From: Heterodontus francisci
Lineage: Eukaryota
Direction: 5' to 3'
Assembly (NCBI RefSeq): GCF_036365525.1
Contig: NC_090404.1
Span: 44,463,544-44,527,543, forward strand
DNA length: 64,000 nt
Part shown: positions 2,822-60,415 of the stretch, one piece after another
How positions within the stretch are numbered: the first letter of the stretch is position 1
Layout: each line of letters begins with the position of its first letter
Position numbers and translations under genes: made by a program
Notes under the pieces: generated by a model
Seen by the model: the letters and a program-made list of their open reading frames with translations, nothing else
The model's database searches: none
Told to the model about the DNA's origin: nothing

Positions 2822-3665
2822 CTGTCCACGCTGAATGCAACCTCACTTAACTGGATCTGTGAACACTAAATGTAAGCATGCTCTATTGGACTTGTCAACG
2901 CTGAATGTAGCCATGCAAAACTGGAAGTTTCCACAATAAATGTAATTCTGATGAACTGGGCCCCTCTGCACTGAAAGTAACTGTGCAGTACCGGGCAGGT
3001 ACACGCTGGTAGTAACAGTGCTCAACTGGCCATCTGCACACTAGATATAACCACGCTGACCTGGGCAAGATTACATTGTCAGTAACTGTGCTGAATTGGG
3101 TTGTCAAAATTCAATGGAGCTAGGCGGAACTGAAGCTGCCCTGGCTGAAAGTAACAAGACAGAACTGGATCTGTCCTCTCCTAATGTGAGTGTGCTGAAC
3201 TGGAACTTTCGACAATGAATATTATGCTGCGGACCTGGACATGTCCACACTAAATATCACTGTGCTGATTGAAGCTGCCTCTACTCATGCACTGAACTTG
3301 ACCAGTCAACATCGAATGCAACCGTATTGAATTGAACTTTTCAACACTGAGAGTTAGCGTGCACAATAGGACCTTCATACATGCAATGTAATCGAGCTGA
3401 ACCCGTCAACAAGGAGAGAACCCGTGCTGAAATTGACCTCGGCACACAACATATAACCGTGCCAACTTCGATCTGTCTGCAATAAATATAAAGGGGCTCA
3501 ATTGGACATGTCTCCCTTGAATATAAGGGTACAGAACTTGACCATCCATCGTGAGCTCAACTGTGCTGAACTGGATGTTTTCAAACAAAACATAAGCATG
3601 CACAATTGCACCTATGCACACTGAAATTACTGTGCTGATCTTGAGCGGTCCACACTGAATACAAT
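2822..3665 (+). repeat. Degenerate 35-bp tandem array (~24 units) upstream of gene A
   Basis: By-eye consensus AATGTAACTGTGCTGAACTGGACCTGTCCACACTG; paralogous array at 59560-60415. Confidence 0.85.
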
Positions 3666-4078
3666 CAGCTGTGTTGAAGTGGATGCCCCATCTCAGAGGG
3701 GTTTGGAGTCAGGTGTATGTGCCTTGAATTACACTGACTGGAGCTGAATAGTGATCGGCATCGAGAACATGGCTCCAATTTCCTTCAGAACCAGAATATC
3801 TCTGGTCAGTTACATCTTGTACTGAGAGCACTCAGCATTAAATGCTTTGAAACCTGACAATTCCTTGCATACACATTTCATTTTCACCATTGAAACCGCT
3901 TAATGAACTTTTCAATTATCGTAACTGTAATTAAGATCATATTGTCATCTCTGGCTAGTTCACTTTAGAGCTGTGTCAGGTCCCTTGAAGAAACAGTCCG
4001 TTCCATCAAAACAAAAACATGAGTCAGGCATCTGCTGCACTGATCTGTTTATGTAATTAATGCAAAACATGAAACCAT

Positions 4079-4114
4079 CTAATTATCTCCCTGGAGTTTG
4101 ACATCAGGTATAAA
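4079..4114 (+). promoter_or_regulatory. Gene A putative proximal promoter: TAATTA + TCCCTGGAG (O/E-like) + TATAAA
   Basis: CTAATTATCTCCCTGGAG at 4079-4096 and TATAAA at 4109-4114; AATTATCTCCCTGGAG is identical upstream of gene C. Confidence 0.6.
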
Positions 4115-4165
4115 TGTGGCGATCTTACAGTGTAGGTCAGATCGTTCTCAGAGCTCCTGGTAGAA

Positions 4166-4235
4166 ATGCACGTATCACCAACAGACCTGGTGTTTTCCAT
4201 TTACTATCCTGTCCTTGCAGCTATCGGGGTTCCAG
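4166..4235 (+). CDS. GPR139-like class A GPCR gene A, coding exon 1 (MHVSPTDLVFSIYYPVLAAIGVP)
   Basis: ATG at 4166; 70 nt ending CCAG|gtaaag (phase 1); joins exon 2 to give TM1 'IGVPANL'; paralogous exon at 59041-59110. Confidence 0.9.
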
Positions 4236-4319
4236 GTAAAGTGTTGGAGGTAGTTATTCGTTACAGGAATCATTGCTTAGCTGTGTTACTGCTTTCATTT
4301 ACCAGTAGCTGTTATGAAT

Positions 4320-4660
4320 ATCCTTTTTCCCTGTAACGTGTTAATTTCTCCACTGAAAGGGAAACATTCTTCCTTCCAATTGGTATAATTTCTCTCCTTC
4401 AACCTTATCATTTTGCCACTTTAATGCTATACATTCTCCATCTTAACAGCAACATTTTTCCCATTTACTGATATAATTTCTCGTCACGAATGATATAATT
4501 TCTCCCCTTCAGAAGTGTCATTTCTCACCATTACTGGCATAATTTCTGAACATTGCTCGTGCAATTTCTGCCACTTGCCACTTTTAGGGCATAATTGCTC
4601 CTCTTTAGCCGTATCAATTTCCCATTAACAAGTGTAATTTTTCCTGCTTAAAAGGATAAT
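4320..4660 (+). repeat. Degenerate ~21-22-bp intronic minisatellite
   Basis: Recurring 'tataatttctc' core; reverse copy at ~58570-58940 in the gene C intron. Confidence 0.6.
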
Positions 4661-4689
4661 TTGGAGCTTCCAAATCCACACCTTTACTT

Positions 4690-5235
4690 GTGCTATTTCA
4701 TGGTGTAAATGCAGTTCTATTATGTTCACTGTGGGTGAATTATCACACTGTTATCAGTGTGTAAATGTAGTTCGATTGTATTATTCACACGGTTACTATG
4801 GGTCGATTACCGCACTGCTATCACGGTGCAGATGTAATTCTGGTGCGTTATTGACACTGTTACCGTGGGTGAAATACCACACTGTTATCCCAGTGTAAAC
4901 GTAGTGAAATTGTGTAATTGACATCGTTTCTGTGGGTACATTATCACACTGTTATCCCAGTGTAAATGTCGTTATATTATGTAATTGACATTGTTTCTGT
5001 GGATGAATTATCACACTGTTATCACGGTGTAAATGTAGTTATACTCTTATTATTTTCATAATTACTATCGATGAATTATCACACTGTTATCCCGGTGTAA
5101 ATATAGTTCTACTCCATTATTTTCATCATTACTGTCGGTGAATTATCACACTGTTTTCTCAGTGTAAATGCAGTTCGATTGTGTTATTCACACTTTTGCT
5201 GCAGGACAACTGTCACGCTGTTATCACGGTGCACG
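4690..5235 (+). repeat. ~67-bp intronic tandem repeat, ~8 units
   Basis: 'gaattatcacactgttatc'-type core at about 4737, 4805, 4871, 4938, 5005, 5073, 5140, 5207. Confidence 0.85.
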
Positions 5236-5608
5236 TGGAGGTATATTGCTTTAATGGCAGTAACAGCAGATGTGTGATTTTCATAAATTATTACTGACTA
5301 AATTTATTCAACTTGTAAATAATGCTTGACTTCATTTAATTATTGAATTTATTGAAGAAACATTATTGTTGTGAACAGAAATATAAGCCATGTAACAAGT
5401 GGCCGTTCTATGAACGTATCCGCACTTACCCCAAACCTCACAGCAGAAGTGTGAATAACACAATAGAACAGCATTTACACTGAGAAAACAGTGTGATAAT
5501 TCACCGACAGTAATGATGAAAATAATGGAGGAGAACCATATTTACACCGGGATAACAGTGTGATAATTCATCGATAGTAATTATGAAAATAATAAGAGTA
5601 TAACTACA
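5034..5608. repeat. 168-bp inverted repeat (arms 5034-5201 and 5441-5608, 239-nt spacer)
   Basis: Arms are ungapped reverse complements with 5 mismatches counted by eye. Confidence 0.92.
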
Positions 5609-6116
5609 ATAACACTAATCATTTTACAGTAATTCATCGGATGAGAGCCTGTTAGTTTCTTTGCGGATATAATCCTTTTTAAATGCAATTTCTGTTTCCT
5701 CCTTTCCTCTAAGTTTCCACTTTTATTGTTCGTTATTGCATTTTAAACCCTGTTAAATATATTCTCGACTATGTTACTGGCGTTATTTTTCTTGTCTGTT
5801 TGATGGCCCCGTGTTGGTTTCAATTGATTAACGATGCCTTTTTGTTCTCCATTATGTTTGGTTGTATTATTTTACATTATGATGATATTGACCTGTCTGA
5901 TTTTTAATCCAGATGATTCATTGAAGCACAAAAACAAGTACCCAGAGGTTAAGCGATAAGTTTCTATTCAGGATCATGTGTCTAAGCTGTGAATCTCACA
6001 GAGAATTCTGTAAATCCGATGGTTTTGTTGGAGTTGGACCAGTGCATTTCCTGTTCTCTCTCGCTCACACACACATACTCTCCGACTTTCTCTCAGTCTC
6101 TCTGTCTCTATTACAG

Positions 6117-7024
6117 CTAACTTGGCAGTGATTGTGATCCTGTCCCGAGGAAGATGCGGTCTCTCCAAATGTATCACTTCCTATCTGGTGTCGATGGCAG
6201 TAACGGATCTCCTGGTCATGATCACCGCTGTGATATTAAACCGAATTGCTGGCATTTATTTCCCTTTCAGTTTCCTGTCCATCACACCGGTGTGCAGTCT
6301 CCGTATTGCCCTAAATTATGCGATCGTAGACTGTTCTGTCTGGTTAACAGTCGCTTTCACCTTTGATCGATTTTTGGCCATTTGTTGCCAGAAACTGAAG
6401 ATAAAATACTGTACTGAGAAAACGGCAGCACGGGTTATAGGAATACTGGCTTTAGTGAGCTGTTTAAAATATACTTTCCTGTATTTTATATATAAACCTT
6501 TGTATATAATTAACAATATACCCTGGTTCTGCAGAATAAAATCAATATTCTATACGTCACCTGCATGGGTCGCATATCAGTGGATTCACCACATTTTAAC
6601 CCCTTATCTCCCATTCATTCTAATTTTACTGCTCAATGCTCTGACCGTCAGACATATCCTCATGGCCAGTAAAGTCCGCAGGAGACTCCGAGCCCACAGC
6701 AATGGAGAGAAACAGAGTGACCCGGAGATGGAAAGCCGGAGGAAGTCCATTGTTTTGCTCTTCTGCATCTCGGGTAGTTTTATCCTGTTATATTTGCCAT
6801 TTCTTATAAATTTCCTTTATATCCGAATTGCGAACATTAGTTATTTTTCTGGTTCCAATTTCAATGAATCAAATTTTATTCTGCAGGAAAGTGGCTATAT
6901 GCTTCAGCTTTTGTGTTCTTGTGTCAATCCATTTATTTATGCAGGGACCCAGAGTAAATTCAGAGAGGAGTTAAAGAATGGAGTGAAATATCCACTGAGT
7001 CTAATTGTTAATTTGTTGAAATGA
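6117..7024 (+). CDS. GPR139-like GPCR gene A, coding exon 2 (TM1 end to C-terminus); full protein 325 aa
   Basis: Pyrimidine tract and ttacag| acceptor at 6116; class A motifs MAVTD, TFDRF, NPFIY; hydrophobic segments; no internal stop. Confidence 0.93.
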
Positions 7025-40496: not shown

Positions 40497-41404
40497 TTAT
40501 TCCAACAATCTAACAATTAGTCTCAGTGGATATTTGACTCCATTCTTTAACTCCTCTCTGAATTCTGCCTGGGTTCCTCCATAAATAAACGGATTAACGC
40601 AGGAGCTCAAAAGCTGAAGCATCAATCCGCTTTGGTCCAGAATAATATTTGATTCATTGAAATTAGAGCCAGAAAAATAACTAAATTTCGCAATTCGGAC
40701 ATAAAGGAAATTTGTAAGAAGTGGCAAATACAGCAGGATAAAACTGCCCGAGATGCAAAAGAGTAAAACGATGGACTTTCTCCGCTTCCCCATCTCTGGA
40801 TCACTCTGAGTCTCTCCATTGTTGTTGGCCGTGAGTCTCCTGCGAGCTCTACTGGCCGCTAGAATGTGCCTGACAGTCAGAACATTGAGCAGTAAAATCA
40901 GAATGAATGGGAGACAAGGGGTGAAAATGTGCACCATCCAGACATATGCGATCAATGCGGGTGATGTATAAAATATTAATTTTATGTTGCAGAACCAGGG
41001 TACATTGTCAATTATATATAAATGTTCATGCATATAATACCAGAAGGAATTTATTAAACAGCTCAATCTGCAGACCGTTCCTATAACCCACGCTGCCGTT
41101 TTCTCAGTGCAGTATTTTATTTTCAGCTTCTGGTAGCAAATGGCTATACAGCGATCAAAGGTGAAAGCGACAGTTACACAAACAGAACAGTCTACCATCG
41201 CAAAGTTTAGGACAATACGGAAAATGCATACAGTTGTGATGAACAGGAAACTGAATGGGTAATAAATACCAGCAATCCGATCTAATATCACAACGGTGAT
41301 AATGACCAGGAGATCTGTCACAGCCATGGACACCAGGTAGTAAGTGATACATCTGGAGAGACCGCATCTTCCTCGGGCCAGGATCACAATCACTGCCAAG
41401 TTAG
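40497..41404 (-). CDS. GPR139-like GPCR gene B, exon 2 only (908 nt, open; orphan exon or incipient pseudogene)
   Basis: ttacag|CTAACTTG acceptor; same length and phase as gene A exon 2; TFDRC, NPFIY; no exon 1 found between 41405 and 53400. Confidence 0.75.
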
Positions 41405-41984
41405 CTGTAACAGAGACAGAGAGACTGAGAGAAGGTGGGAAAGTGTATGTGTGTGAGTGAGCGAAATAGGACAATTACTGGTCTGATGTCCAACAAAATC
41501 AGCCCTTTTACAGAATTCACAGCTGTAACACATGATACTGAGTAGAAAACTATCGCTGAACCATCAGAAACTTGTTTCTATGTTTGAAATAATTTGGATT
41601 AAAAATAAGACAGAACGATAATATTGGAATGAAAAATCATATAATCACAAATAATGTAGAACAAGAAGGCATCAGAAATCCATTGTAACCAACATGGGGA
41701 TATCAAGCAGACAAGAACGATAACACCAGTAACAGATTGTAGAAGATATTTAAAAGGGTAAAAAATACAATAAGAAACGACAAAAGTAGAAAAGAATAGC
41801 AAAGTAGGAAAACCTTTCATTTAAAACGGATTATATCCTGCTGAGAATCTAAAATGTTCCATTCAACAAATTATTGCAAAATGATTCACTGTTGAAAAAA
41901 ACGACTGTCACCCTATTCAAAAAGATCCACAAACAGAGCGAACAAAATGGACAATTAGTGTTTTCTCAGTTTGCAGACGGGATT

Positions 41985-53439: not shown

Positions 53440-54350
53440 TCATTGTTTACATAATTTAGCAATTAGACGAATTGGATATTTCACTCCTTTCTTTAACTCG
53501 ACTCTGAATTTACTTTGAGTCCCTGCATAAATGAATGGGTTGATGCAAGAACTCAGAAACTGAAGCATATATCCGCTTTCCTCCAGAATATAATTTGATT
53601 CATTGAAATTGGAACCGGAAAAATAAGTAAGGCTCGCAATCTGGACATAGAGGAAAGATACAAATCGTAACAAATATAACAGGATGAAAGTACCCGAGAC
53701 ACAGAAGAGTAAAACTATGGAGTTTCTCCGTTTCTCCATCTCTGGGTCACTCTGTTTCCTTCCGTTGCTGTGGGCTCGGAGTCTCCTGCGAGTTCTACTG
53801 GCTGCCACAATGTCCCTGACAGTCAGAGCATTGAGCAGTAAAATCAGAATGAATGGGAGACAAGGGTTTAAAATCTGATGAATCCATTCATATGCAATCC
53901 AGGCAGTTGATGTATAAAATACTGATTTCATGCTGCAGAGCCAGGGTATATTGTTAATTATATACAAAGGTTCACATATAAAAAACACAAACGTATTATA
54001 CAAACAGCTCAGTGTGCAGACCGTTGCTATAACCCGTGCCGCTGTTTTATTGGAGCAATATTTTATTTTCAGCTTTTTGCAACAGATAGCTATAAATCGA
54101 TCAAATGTGAAAACGACTGTTAACCAGACAGAAATATCTATGGCTGCAAAGTTCAGGGCAACTCGGAGACCACATACTGGTGTGATGTTCAGGAAACTGA
54201 ATGGGAAATAATAAATAGCAATCCTGTTTAATATCACAGCAGTGAAAATTACCAAGAGATCCATCACTGCCATAGACACCAGGTAGTAAGTGATACATCT
54301 GGAAAGACCACATCTTCCTTGGGGCAGGATCACAATAACTGCCAAGTTAG
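53440..54350 (-). CDS. GPR139-like GPCR gene C, coding exon 2; full protein 326 aa
   Basis: ttacag|CTAACTTG acceptor; MAVMD, TFDRF, NPFIY; open frame. Confidence 0.92.
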
Positions 54351-54403: not shown

Positions 54404-54876
54404 ACCTGTGTAAATAATTAACAATATACCTGGTTCTGCCACAGAAAATCAATATTTTATGTATCAGTTGCATGGGACGCAGATTAATGGACTCATTGGA
54501 TTTTAACCCCTTGTCTCCCTTTCATTCCGATTTTACTGCTCGATGCTCTGACCTTCAGACACATTCTAGCGGCCAGTATAGCTCACAGGAGACTCCGAGC
54601 CCAGAGATGGAGAAGCGGAGAAACTCCATCGTTTTACTCTTCTGTGCCTCGGGTACTTGCATCCTGTTATATTTGTTACAATTTAGATCTTTCGGAATTG
54701 CGAACTTTACTTATTTCTCCAGTTCCAACTTCAATGAATCAAATTTTATTCTGGAGGAAAGCGCATATATGCTTTAGCTTTTTGAGTTCTTGACTCCACC
54801 CGTTCATTTATGTCGGGAGCCAAAGTAAATTCAGAGTCGAGTTAAAGAAAGGAGTGAAATATCCAATGAGTCTAAT
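54404..54876 (+). pseudogene. Inverted decayed copy of the 3' half of GPCR exon 2, inside the gene C intron
   Basis: Reads PEMEKRRNSIVLLFC, NFNESNFILEES, KFRVELKKGVKYP; deletions and stops; partner region 53462-53971. Confidence 0.9.
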
Positions 54877-55106
54877 GTGTGAGAGACAGAGCGAGTACAG
54901 GACAGTTGCTGGTCCACTTCCAACAAAATGATCCGTTTTACAGAATTCTGTGCGAAATGTACAACTGTGAAGCGTGATCTTTGGTTAGAAGCGATCCATT
55001 CTGCTCTGTTTCTGTTTCTAAAGTAATCCTCTGAATGAAAAATAAATCAGGCCAATGACATCAAAATGTAAAATAAAATTAATAAACACAATTGACATCA
55101 GCGAAG

Positions 55107-56538
55107 CATCAGAAACCCATTAAAATCAACGTGAGAGCATCAAAAAGAAAAACAAAGTATATAACAGTAACTTATTATGGAAGATATTTAAAGGGGTGAA
55201 TAATGCAACAAAATACATTCGGTGTGGAAACAAGCAAGTTTCTTCTTTTCTTCTTTCTTTTGGGCCTCCTTATCTCGAGAGACAATGGATACGCGCCTGG
55301 AGGTGGTCAGTGGTTTGTGAAGCAGCGCCTGGAGTGGCTATAAAGGCCAATTCTGGAGTGACAGGCTCTTCCACAGGTGCTGCAGAGAAATTTGTTTGTT
55401 GGGGCTGTTGCACAGTTGGCTCTCCCCTTGCGCCTCTGTCTTTTTTCCTGCCAACTACTAAGTCTCTTCGACTCGCCACAATTTAGCCCTGTCTTTATGG
55501 CTGCCCGCCAGCTCTGGCGAATGCTGGCAACTGACTCCCACGACTTGTGATCAATGTCACACGATTTCATGTCGCGTTTGCAGACGTCTTTATAACGGAG
55601 ACATGGACGGCCGGTGGGTCTGATACCAGTGGCGAGCTCGCTGTACAATGTGTCTTTGGGGATCCTGCCATCTTCCATGCGGCTCACATGGCCAAGCCAT
55701 CTCAAGCGCCGCTGACTCAGTAGTGTGTATAAGCTGGGGATGTTGGCCGCTTCAAGGACTTCTGTGTTGGAGATATAGTCCTGCCACCTGATGCCAAGTA
55801 TTCTCCGAAGGCAGCGAAGATGGAATGAATTGAGACGTCGCTCTTGGCTGGCATACGTTGTCCAGGCCTCGCTGCCGTAGAGCAAGGTACTGAGGACACA
55901 GGCCTGATACACTCGGACTTTTGTGTTCCGTGTCAGTGCGCCATTTTCCCACACTCTCTTGGCCAGTCTGAACATAGCAGTGGAAGCCTTACCCATGCGC
56001 TTGTTGATTTCTGCATCTAGAGACAGGTTACTGGTGATAGTTGAGCCTAGGTAGGTGAACTCTTGAACCACTTCCAGAGCGTGGTCGCCAATATTGATGG
56101 ATGGAGCATTTCTGACATCCTGCCCCATGATGTTCGTTTTCTTGAGGCTGATGGTTAGGCCAAATTCATTGCAGGCAGACGCAAACCTGTCGATGAGACT
56201 CTGCAGGCATTCTTCAGTGTGAGATGTTAAAGCAGCATCGTCAGCAAAGAGGAGTTCTCTGATGAGGACTTTCCGTACTTTGGACTTCGCTCTTAGACGG
56301 GCAAGGTTGAACAACCTGCCCCCTGATCTTGTGTGGAGGAAAATTCCTTCTTCAGAGGATTTGAACGCATGTGAAAGCAGCAGGGAGAAGAAAATCCCAA
56401 AATCCCATCAGAAACCCATTAAAATCAACGTGAGAGCATCAAAAAGAAAAACAAAGTATATAACAGTAACTTATTATGGAAGATATTTAAAGGGGTGAAT
56501 AATGCAACAAAATACATTCGGTGTGGAAACAAGCAAGT
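55107..56538. repeat. 133-bp identical direct repeats (55107-55239 and 56406-56538) flanking the RTE
   Basis: catcagaaacccatt...gaaacaagcaagt identical by eye. Confidence 0.93.
55240..56405 (-). mobile_element. Young RTE-clade (BovB-like) LINE, 5'-truncated
   Basis: Open 335-aa ORF: LLFADDAAL, FTYLGS, LLYGSEAW, RLRWLGH, C2H2 finger CSTC..H...C; AAG-rich tail. Confidence 0.93.
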
Positions 56539-57769: not shown

Positions 57770-58560
57770 CCACATTTATATCGTGATAACAGTGTGACAA
57801 TTCACCCACAGTAACAGTGTCAATAGCACAATAAGGCAACATTTACAGCGTGATAACAGTATGTTAATTCACCCACAGTAACAGTGTCAATAACACATTA
57901 GAGACATTTACACCATAACAGTGTGATAGTTCACGCACAGTAAATGTCAATAACACATAATAAGTGCATTCACACAGTGAGAACAGTGTGATAATTCGCT
58001 CACAGTAATAGCGTGAATAACCATAGAACCATAACAAAATGACGCCCAGAAAGAGGCAATTCAGCCAATCGTATGTGTGCCGCCCAAAAAGTACTAGCAG
58101 CCCAATATATTCCCACCTTCCTGCACCTGGTCTGTAGCCTTGCAGGTTGCAGCACTTCAGGTGCATATCCAGGTGCGTTTTAAATAAACTGAGGATTTCT
58201 GCCTCCAGCACCGTCTGAGTGAAAAGGTTTTTCGTCATGTCCCCTCTAATCATTCCACCAATCATCTTAAATTTGTGCCCCATAGCAATTGACCTCAATA
58301 GAACTACATTTACAGTGTGATAATTCACTCAGGGTAAGTGTCAATCACAAAATAGAACTAAATTTACACCGCTAACAGTGTGCAGTAATTCACCAACAGT
58401 ACCAGTGTCAATAACACAATAAAACGACTTTGAATTGTGGTGAGTGCGGCAATTGACCTCCCGCAATATTGTCAGTAACACAATAGAACGACATTTACAC
58501 TGTGATAATTACCCCAAAGTAACAGTCTCAACACCACATGCAACTACATTTAAATTGTGA
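57770..58560 (-). repeat. ~67-bp intronic repeat of gene C, interrupted by a CR1 tail (~58020-58295)
   Basis: Reverse complement of the 4690-5235 units. Confidence 0.8.
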
Positions 58561-59040: not shown

Positions 59041-59110
59041 CTGGAACCCCGATAACTGCAATGATTGGATAGTAAATGACAAACACCAGACCTGTTGGTA
59101 ATACGTGCAT
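59041..59110 (-). CDS. GPR139-like GPCR gene C, coding exon 1 (MHVLPTGLVFVIYYPIIAVIGVP)
   Basis: ATG at 59110; 70 nt; CCAG|gtaaag donor; paralog of 4166-4235. Confidence 0.9.
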
Positions 59111-59154: not shown

Positions 59155-59196
59155 GTCATTTTAATACCCAATGTCAGGCTCCAGGGAGATAATTGG
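59155..59196 (-). promoter_or_regulatory. Gene C putative proximal promoter: CAATTA + TCCCTGGAG + TATTAAAA
   Basis: Minus-strand CAATTATCTCCCTGGAG at 59195-59179, ~69 nt before the ATG. Confidence 0.6.
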
Positions 59197-59559: not shown

Positions 59560-60415
59560 TACGTCTGCACACTGACTTTAACACAACTATCTCTGCATTC
59601 AGTGTGGACAGGTCCAGTTACGTCCCGTTGCATTCATTGTGCACAGGTCCAGTACCTTGCAATTATTTTCATTGCGGACTTGTCCAGGTCAGTGCCGTTA
59701 TATTCAATGTGGGCAGGTCCAGTTCATCTTACATAGGTCCAGTTAAGCACAGTTACATTCGAGCTGAACATGCCCAATGCTGCTCCCTTGCATTCAGTGT
59801 GACCAAGTCCTGTTCAGCATGTTTAAATTCAGTGTGAACTGGTCCAGTTCAGCATATTACATTCTGTGTGTACAGGTTCAGGTGCTGTATTCACCATGGA
59901 CTGGTTCATTGCAGCAAGATTACATGCAGTCGGGGCAGTTCCACTTCAGCAATAAAATTCAGTGTGGACAGATCCAATTCAGCACAGTCATATCCAATAC
60001 AGACACATTCAGATCCAGGTCAGGGAAAAGTCCAGTTTAGCACCATCAATTTCAGTGTGAATAGATCTGTTTCAGCAAAATTAAAGCCAGTCTGTACATG
60101 TCCAGGTCAGTGCTGTTATAGTTCTGGTGGACAGGACCTGTGCAGTAAATTTACATTCAATGTTGACAGGTCCAATTCAGTTCAGTGGGGTAATATTCAG
60201 TGTGCACTGGTTACATTGATTATTGACAAATCCGGCTCAAAGTTGTTGCATTTAGCGTAAAAACGTTCAATTCAATATTTCGCTTGCACAGGTCAAACTC
60301 TACATGCTTATGTTCTGAGTTAACAAGATCAGTACAGCACGGTTCCATTCACTGTATGCAGGTCCAGCTCTACATGGCTAGTTTCAAAGTGAACTGGTCC
60401 ACGGCAACTAGGTTA
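59560..60415 (-). repeat. Degenerate 35-bp tandem array upstream of gene C
   Basis: Units 'cagtgtggacaggtccagttcagcacagttacatt' on the + strand. Confidence 0.85.

Follow-up and report, generated by a model that had tools for sequence, protein, structure and literature searches.

The locus analysed here raises the question whether a short element in the promoters of clustered receptor genes marks a chemoreceptor repertoire of the shark nose. Shark olfaction is a puzzle: the olfactory organs are large and smell is keen, yet the known receptor repertoire is small. According to PMC10116579 and PMC11979771, sharks have ORs, TAARs and ORAs in very small numbers and a V2R set of modest size; the V2Rs are held to be the main olfactory family, and all olfactory sensory neurons (OSNs) of the catshark are positive for TRPC2/Go. 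In the window, by which we mean the whole stretch of 64,000 nucleotides of the horn shark genome, the original prediction placed adjacent homeodomain and O/E sites of the odorant-receptor type on GPR139-like genes. The coding features of the window are the following.

4166..4235, plus strand: first coding exon of gene A, from the N-terminus to the middle of TM1, with a phase-1 donor GTAAAG at 4236.
6117..7024, plus strand: gene A coding exon 2 (rest of a class A 7TM receptor; Pfam 7tm_1, E=3.4e-22).
59041..59110, minus strand: gene C coding exon 1, in an open spliced frame with exon 2.
53440..54350, minus strand: gene C coding exon 2, in an open spliced frame with exon 1.
40497..41404, minus strand: gene B exon 2, an open frame with its acceptor present.
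54404..54877, plus strand: inverted, broken partial copy of exon 2 in the intron of gene C (46% identity, 2 stops).

The spliced model of gene A is identical to the database protein P0001 (325 aa), with a phase-1 intron at 4236-6116. For gene B, no promoter or exon 1 of its own was found within the 64-kb window; the gene may be promoterless, or it may use the first exon of gene C. The resemblance of gene B (40497-41886, minus strand) to the intron of gene A stops at a repeat near 41.9-42.9 kb. The hallmarks of the OR family are the motifs MAYDRYVAIC, PMY and KAFSTCxSH and an intronless coding region. None of these motifs occurs in gene A, whose coding region is interrupted by the phase-1 intron, and membership of the OR family was thus ruled out.

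The promoter features are listed below, with paralog counts taken from the set of 67 paralogs and site rates from the tree of 64 promoters described further on.

4054..4059, plus strand: second homeodomain site TAATTA of gene A, retained in 60/67 paralogs (rate 1.0).
4080..4096, plus strand: composite promoter element of gene A, consisting of TAATTA (4080-4085), a 2-nt spacer and the O/E-like TCCC-TG-GAG (4088-4096).
4099..4106, plus strand: TGACATCA (TGACA) in the interval between composite and TATA box; rate 0.69 over 4099-4103, TGACA in 44/67 paralogs.
4109..4115, plus strand: TATA box TATAAAT of gene A; rate 0.57, TATAAA in 54/67 paralogs.
59179..59195, minus strand: composite element of gene C, CAATTA + TC + TCCCTGGAG.

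As predicted, genes A and C have an identical 16-mer, AATTATCTCCCTGGAG, at 4081-4096 (plus strand) and 59179-59194 (minus strand). The element of gene A reads TAATTA-TC-TCCCTGGAG (4080-4096) and is followed by TGACATCA at 4099, TATAAAT at 4109 and the ATG at 4166, so that the end of the 16-mer lies 12 nt from the TATA box and 69 nt from the ATG, in agreement with the distance of about 70 nt and the adjoining TATA-like box claimed beforehand. In gene C, CAATTA stands in place of the TAATTA of the motif, and the TATA position reads TATTAAAA. The TGACATCA site at 4099..4106 was overlooked in the first reading of the sequence; we take its TGACA to be TALE- or CRE-like. The statement that the sequence around the shared 16-mer has diverged proved to be overstated, as genes A and C are 74% identical over 3764-4313 (550 nt aligned). 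In simulations at 76-80% identity over 390 nt, an exact run of at least 16 nt appeared in 69-90% of cases. The 16-mer shared by A and C is therefore weak evidence when taken alone, because the 74% likeness makes such a run expected, and the A-versus-C identity was discarded as evidence of conservation.

A set of paralogs was chosen by the exon-1 donor pattern without use of the motif. The pattern gave 219 matches; among the 100 matches listed, 80 regions contained 81 donors, 14 of which were set aside as divergent subfamilies, leaving 67 paralogs. By tree-based site rates, computed for 64 of 68 sequences, the 17-mer at 4080 evolves more slowly than any other of 350 non-coding windows, with a rate of 0.69 (permutation P=0.0004). 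The corresponding rates are 1.23 for the intron, 1.14 for the distal promoter, 0.96 for the 5′UTR, 0.57 for the TATA box and 0.56 for exon 1, the last being biased low because the sequences were selected by exon 1. Inside the 17-mer, YCCC is slowest (0.54) and the spacer (0.83) and NN (0.84) are fastest, while the homeodomain half is about as slow as the O/E half (0.70 vs 0.54-0.67). The mean column conservation of the element is 0.925 (56 de-duplicated promoters, gaps counted as mismatches), and the same measure gives 0.72 for 3780-4030, 0.85 for 4031-4079, 0.83 for the 5′UTR and 0.75 for the intron. Preferential conservation across the paralog promoters, which had been set beforehand as the test by which the prediction could be refuted, was thus found, the element ranking first of the 350 windows by rate. 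The preferential conservation is therefore real, and it is carried by the paralog set, not by the comparison of A with C.

The other upstream sites named in the prediction are all present in gene A, namely TAATGA at 3901, TAATTA at 3928 and 4054, and the shared TCCCTTGAA at 3981. Among the 67 paralogs, a homeodomain-type word is retained in 60 at 4054 and in 53 at 4080 (the strict YCCCNNGRR at 4088 being found in 49), against 4 at 3901 and 3 at 3928, and the exact TCCCTTGAA occurs in just 17. These counts rule out 3901, 3928 and 3981 as conserved parts, so that of the extra sites only the one at 4054 stands. The rate of this second homeodomain site is 1.0 over 4052-4062, no lower than that of its flanks; a CAATTA just 5′ of it, found in 49/67 paralogs, is deleted from gene A. 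By eye, a TGTTTGTTCA...GTAAYTAAT block at about 4045-4060, presumably forkhead-like plus homeodomain-like, is common to nearly all subfamilies when the homologous positions of loci L031-L043 and L161-L180 are compared, and is partly deleted in gene A.

The exact 16-mer has 98 copies in the 6-Gb genome, all on four contigs with clusters of the A-C subfamily, and its reversed control has none. These copies reflect paralogy and are not independent sites. All 98 sit in cluster regions, those examined lying 12 nt 5′ of a TATA box, and they are not intergenic enhancers; the spacing of 12 nt between element and TATA is kept in 88 of 92 located elements of the A-C subfamily. The 17-mer is a real and strongly conserved regulatory element of the promoter.

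As regards the factors, the shark 17-mer agrees in register with 16 of the 17 positions of the mouse Lhx2-Ebf composite pattern in the part of PMC11643329 that prints it, 12 of them at the first-listed letter. The single misfit is the spacer base T7, which is T and not a purine. As many as 1,444 of 127,664 window positions also attain 16/17 with this loose pattern, which was discarded as stand-alone evidence. The strict form TAATKR-NN-YCCC-NN-GRR, with a chance of about 4e-7 per position, has a single occurrence in the window, at 4080. Read as an O/E site, the element departs from TCCCNNGGGA at 2 positions at best, whichever of two registers is used. Among the probes given in the accessible text of PMC5608512, the OMP Ebf probe has CTCCCTGG in common with the shark element, and the Sfaktiria composite resembles it with one extra base after TAATT, the shark site being one base shorter between TAAT and TCTCC. 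The order and spacing, TAATTR followed by YCCC-NN-GRR, equal those of the mouse Greek Islands composite as far as it is given in PMC5608512 and PMC11643329, and further homeodomain sites lie close by, as in mouse OR enhancers and promoters.

The difference lies in the position. Unlike the intergenic-enhancer composite of the mouse, the shark element is part of each gene's core promoter, with the TATA box 12 nt away and the coding ATG at a distance of about 70 nt. For the mouse, PMC11643329 finds the composite enriched in enhancers but depleted from the promoters of OR genes; the latter bear separate homeodomain and O/E sites according to PMC12547500. By its sequence the element resembles the OR promoter code, yet it is not of the Greek Island enhancer type. 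The likely predicted binders in the A-C subfamily are a LIM-homeodomain factor of the Lhx2 type and an O/E (EBF) dimer, and for this subfamily the homeodomain plus O/E composite originally proposed fits in both sequence and spacing.

The situation is different in the rest of the family, where the EBF-type CCC is mostly missing. A homologous 17-mer was located 11-15 nt 5′ of a TATA-like word in 146 of 156 distinct promoters, a count that is partly circular because the locating template was derived from our own alignments, and the A-C class (92 located elements) includes 30 loci chosen by promoter likeness. TAATTR is found in 70/92 elements of the A-C class, 12/18 of the long-N subfamily, 2/2 of the 2-element class, 0/21 of group II, 0/6 of group III and 2/7 others; for the EBF-type YCCC the counts are 75/92, 1/18, 0/2, 0/21, 0/6 and 2/7, respectively. 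The group III figures rest on 6 promoters; in 29 group III promoters viewed by eye, a TGACTGTC-type variant predominates. The O/E core is thus not family-wide, with YCCC in 3 of 54 located elements outside the A-C subfamily. The letters that are constant family-wide are T7, T9, C10 and TGGAG, the first of which is the misfit to the mouse composite. The presence of a homologous element in the other subfamilies indicates that the element is older than the A-C subfamily and that the EBF-like CCC is not universal. The EBF half is mostly a feature of the A-C subfamily, the element at the same position elsewhere having other letters.

The missing CCC is the main argument for another binding factor. 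The element would then be a selected, family-wide core-promoter site (T.TC..TGGAG, or TGTCA/TGACA, which we take to be a TALE-type site), and its likeness to the Lhx2/Ebf composite would be secondary. The 146/156 promoters with an element at this position, for all their circularity, and the 3,907 exact genome copies of the variant TAATTGTGTCACTGGA (control 4) agree with such a site. On the other hand, CCC is slowest and NN fastest in the A-C subfamily, as in an EBF site, the Ebf half of composites is degenerate and tolerates pyrimidine/purine stretches (PMC5608512, accessible part), and the long-N promoters have a second TCTCCATGGA 13 nt upstream. We regard another factor as possible, if somewhat doubtful; it has no bearing on tissue and is compatible with a chemosensory role.

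To return to an Lhx2/Ebf-type site, the V2R genes of the same genome offer a comparison. Matches to ANF_receptor cluster on contig C11, where about 55-60 V2R-type matches were counted by eye, the label V2R-type being based on their clustering and the shape of exon 1 rather than on a tree. First exons were identified in 16 of 20 regions (C11:108-116 Mb, loci L247-L266). An O/E-like site with at most 2 mismatches, no more than 300 nt from the ATG, is present in 16/16 V2R-type promoters vs 227/395 background windows (10/10 groups of promoters, P=0.004). At no more than 1 mismatch, the V2R-type promoters showed no enrichment in O/E-like sites (2/16 vs 41/395). An adjoining homeodomain site is found in 7/16, belonging to only 2 of 10 groups, with a background of 14/395, and two V2R composite examples match 17/17 positions of the pattern. 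The equal composite test gives 69/98 for A-C-class promoters vs 18/212 for the window background. The V2R O/E-like sites, judged by their letters, lend modest support to an olfactory-type code. The V2R-type first exons also have TATA-like boxes, and their O/E-like sites lie 120-200 nt 5′ of the ATG.

The receptors that carry the element belong to a very large family. That it is clustered, as predicted, is borne out by at least 9,586 exon-1 and 5,151 exon-2 TM3 matches to exact patterns genome-wide (controls 0), arranged in tandem clusters on several chromosomes with a birth-and-death pattern. As the TM3 pattern caught 51 of 84 known copies, the true copy number may be nearer 8,000, while the many members on unplaced scaffolds and in near-identical blocks mean that haplotype duplicates may inflate the counts. 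Of the full-length exon-2 matches examined, 61 of 63 are free of stops, although intact genes are over-represented in this sample. A protein search in which 131 of 13,364 candidates were scored gave identities of 77-100%, 129 of the candidates being without stops. The very short N-terminus of the original description is true of some subfamilies and not of others, such as long-N.

Many sharks and rays have annotated relatives. A tree of 46 rows unites the family and one salamander gene in a clade of their own (100/99), apart from amphioxus, and genes A-C fall in a 14-row clade (100/99) that includes proteins from seven other shark genera. Two conserved GPR139-like genes stand outside the family clade, each with a separate ortholog in the horn shark genome, in this tree without true GPR139. 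The two orthologs, L241 (C25:37.86 Mb) and L242 (C3:166.5 Mb), group with coelacanth/teleost and teleost/caecilian proteins. Gene A matches human GPR139 at only E=2e-6 and the prolactin-releasing peptide receptor slightly better, at 1.4e-7. Orthology to GPR139 is ruled out by this E value, the separate clade and the thousands of copies; of the label GPR139-like, a distant kinship is what remains. Fish and coelacanth orphans of the GPR139/GPR142 group are named GPR210A/B in PMC6504862, whose accessible text gave no shark match for this group under the terms tried. The shark family differs from GPR139/GPR142 and from GPR210A/B in its separate clade (100/99) with the salamander gene. The salamander proteins P0228, P0273 and P0276 are close relatives with the TM3 and ICL3 motifs of the shark family, and would make salamanders a convenient tetrapod in which to study expression and ligands.

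Selection on the receptors was measured in 33 A-C subfamily genes, after 1 near-duplicate had been removed along with 19 matches that were gapped, truncated or interrupted by a stop. The pN/pS ratio is 0.43 overall, 0.25 in the intracellular half and 0.60 in the extracellular half, and falls to 0.04-0.14 in ICL1/ICL2. For the predicted pocket, 34 positions placed by generic numbering and not by structure (the TM6 numbering being less certain), it is 0.76 (0.56-0.98), vs 0.41 (0.33-0.50) at other TM positions. The A-C subfamily is under purifying selection, with a variable ligand pocket and a conserved G-protein face. Clusters, birth and death, a compact coding region and a variable pocket are features in common with OR, TAAR, V1R/ORA and V2R/OlfC genes, from all of which the family differs in its separate origin, the intron within TM1 and the thousands of copies; O/E-like promoter sites are shared by the A-C subfamily with the V2Rs of the horn shark genome. 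These chemoreceptor hallmarks go far beyond what the window suggested, and the family is probably a large chemoreceptor repertoire.

We therefore come to the reading that we favor. The 17-mer would be a conserved element of the proximal promoter, shared by a very large family of clustered two-exon genes for GPR139-related receptors, and each gene would bear its own composite site in the core promoter, duplicated along with it. In the A-C subfamily, a LIM-homeodomain factor, presumably of the Lhx2 type, would bind beside an O/E (EBF) dimer and switch the genes on in olfactory sensory neurons; the genes would then make up a chemoreceptor repertoire that has probably gone undescribed. Expression would be expected in the olfactory rosette, which in the catshark consists of microvillous TRPC2/Go neurons, possibly with the choice of one receptor per neuron. 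Kin of GPR139 are known for amino acid or peptide ligands, and the ligands here may likewise be water-soluble amino acids or peptides. Judging from the sequences, it is rather probable that the A-C element works as a homeodomain + O/E site and that the family serves the nose as a chemoreceptor repertoire.

The literature searches, with subscription papers excluded, returned no account of a GPR139-like expansion in cartilaginous fish or of such a promoter. Term look-ups in the accessible texts of PMC11979771, PMC10620051, PMC6504862 and bioRxiv 2025.06.08.657570 (without the supplements of PMC11979771 and the bioRxiv paper) found no such family, and there was no match in 8 supplementary files of PMC13188829 or in 12 of the 24 that accompany PMC8455134. 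The promoter conservation test, the V2R comparison, the family size in the horn shark genome and the first-exon arrays are new. PMC11979771 describes a brain-plus-olfactory library whose top 50 genes contain no GPCR; like the standing of the V2Rs as the main olfactory family, this counts against the olfactory reading, although sparse expression would have the same result. A deep-sea snail gene labelled GPR139 is among the osphradium-enriched genes in the accessible text of PMC10638732, which is an analogy only.

Hints of expression come from three runs of one sample, presumed to be RNA and without tissue label, which contain 31, 59 and 21 contigs at 80% likeness. In these runs no contig reaches 99% to gene A, and exon 1 is uncovered, which speaks neither for nor against its expression. 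A loose contig end in run X3 joins the end of a paralog exon 1 to the start of an exon 2, and another loose end shows an intron acceptor; from the apparently spliced end, some family members appear to be transcribed somewhere. Given the contigs in the unlabelled runs, expression may extend, for some members, to tissues other than the nose.

Other sensory cells, too, have active EBF and homeodomain factors, and the genes could be receptors of skin or gill chemosensory, taste, somatosensory or electrosensory cells in place of the nose. Family size and pocket variability would suit any diversified sensing family, the paralog contigs come from runs of no stated tissue, and most OR, TAAR and ORA genes of the catshark are more highly expressed outside the nose (PMC11979771, accessible part). 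Such an origin is made unlikely by the homeodomain site that adjoins the O/E site at the spacing of mouse OR enhancers and by the O/E-like sites in the V2R promoters.

The role of EBF in B cells suggests, as a further alternative, an immune-cell family, driven by EBF1 in B cells or expressed in other leukocytes, of diversified sensors of microbial or self peptides. Pocket diversification suits pathogen sensing equally, and catshark OR genes are high in spleen in the accessible text of PMC11979771. We consider it quite improbable, in view of the several conserved homeodomain sites around the O/E-like site and of a homeodomain half that evolves as slowly as the O/E half.

Returning to the olfactory reading, the organization of the long-N subfamily deserves attention. 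It has 3,907 exact promoter words vs 1,268 exon-2 words, and it has arrays of promoter/exon-1 cassettes: 12 same-strand cassettes and zero exon 2 in the 200 kb of C21:1.20-1.40 Mb, 8 cassettes 5′ of one frameshifted exon 2 at C7:138.565-138.765 Mb, and 11 cassettes with 3 intact exon 2 at C21:6.53-6.73 Mb. No same-strand exon-2 word was found near the C21 array. On C21, the first downstream exon 2 is on the same strand in 35/44 groups (P=5e-5; upstream control 19/44) and in 48/81 single promoters. In 22 orphan cassettes, pN/pS is 0.89 in nine codons outside the search pattern and 0.43 inside. Overall, arrays with few or no second exons span C21:1.19-2.21 Mb and C7:138.57-138.77 Mb (L181-L200, L221-L240).

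At the UGT1 locus and in the protocadherin clusters, each variable first exon has a promoter of its own, and a constant exon is shared by all. The several same-strand cassettes 5′ of one exon 2 (8 to 1 on C7) are alike, and going by the genomic layout, the arrays may be protocadherin-like or consist of orphan duplicates. Unlike in those loci, the variable exon of long-N codes only for the N-terminus and half of TM1, and in the one array mapped in full the exon 2 is frameshifted. The likeness is not applicable to genes A and C. At the N-terminus the long-N proteins also have a tandem repeat, with units of about 14 residues that include an N-V-T sequon; the number of units varies, and a catshark protein has them too (read in loci L141-L154, L158-L160 and L163 and in proteins P0136 and P0243).

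That the copies are largely passengers of segmental or satellite-driven duplication, most of them silent and the motif kept by descent, is very improbable: the 74% likeness of A and C across the whole promoter, the orphan cassettes (12 in 200 kb without exon 2), the members on unplaced scaffolds, the frameshifted exon 2 behind the 8-cassette array and the cassette pN/pS of 0.89 outside the search pattern would fit, but the receptor pN/pS (0.43 overall, 0.04-0.14 in ICL1/ICL2), a motif rate about half that of the intron, the 61/63 stop-free exon-2 matches of the biased sample and the occurrence of the A-C subfamily in several shark genera are against it.

The wider form of the olfactory reading is that of a shark and ray olfactory family of several thousand genes, independently recruited from a GPR139-related orphan, with an Lhx2/Ebf site in each core promoter and with some subfamilies multiplying cassettes to tune receptor choice; we give it an even chance. 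Several thousand genes would, to our knowledge, exceed any described vertebrate olfactory repertoire, in animals credited so far with a few dozen V2Rs. If the family is olfactory, the view of a small shark repertoire would be overturned, an independent recruitment of a GPCR lineage to smell would be added, and the control of receptor genes by homeodomain + O/E sites would date to the jawed-vertebrate ancestor, in microvillous neurons. If it is not, such a large receptor family in another tissue still needs explaining. With such a family, the puzzle of shark smell can be put to a direct test by means of the RNA data already available for catshark and a single cross-reacting in situ probe.

Several repeats accompany the genes of the window. 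A degenerate period-35 satellite lies 5′ of the promoters of genes A and C (2950-3680; 59597-59881), and a satellite with a period of about 67, partly as an inverted copy, is found in the introns of both (4723-5231, 5439-5615, 57772-58021). The intron of gene C further contains a 133-nt exact direct repeat (55107-55239, 56406-56538) around an ORF at 55307-56128 (minus strand), whose 273-aa frame looks reverse-transcriptase-like by eye.
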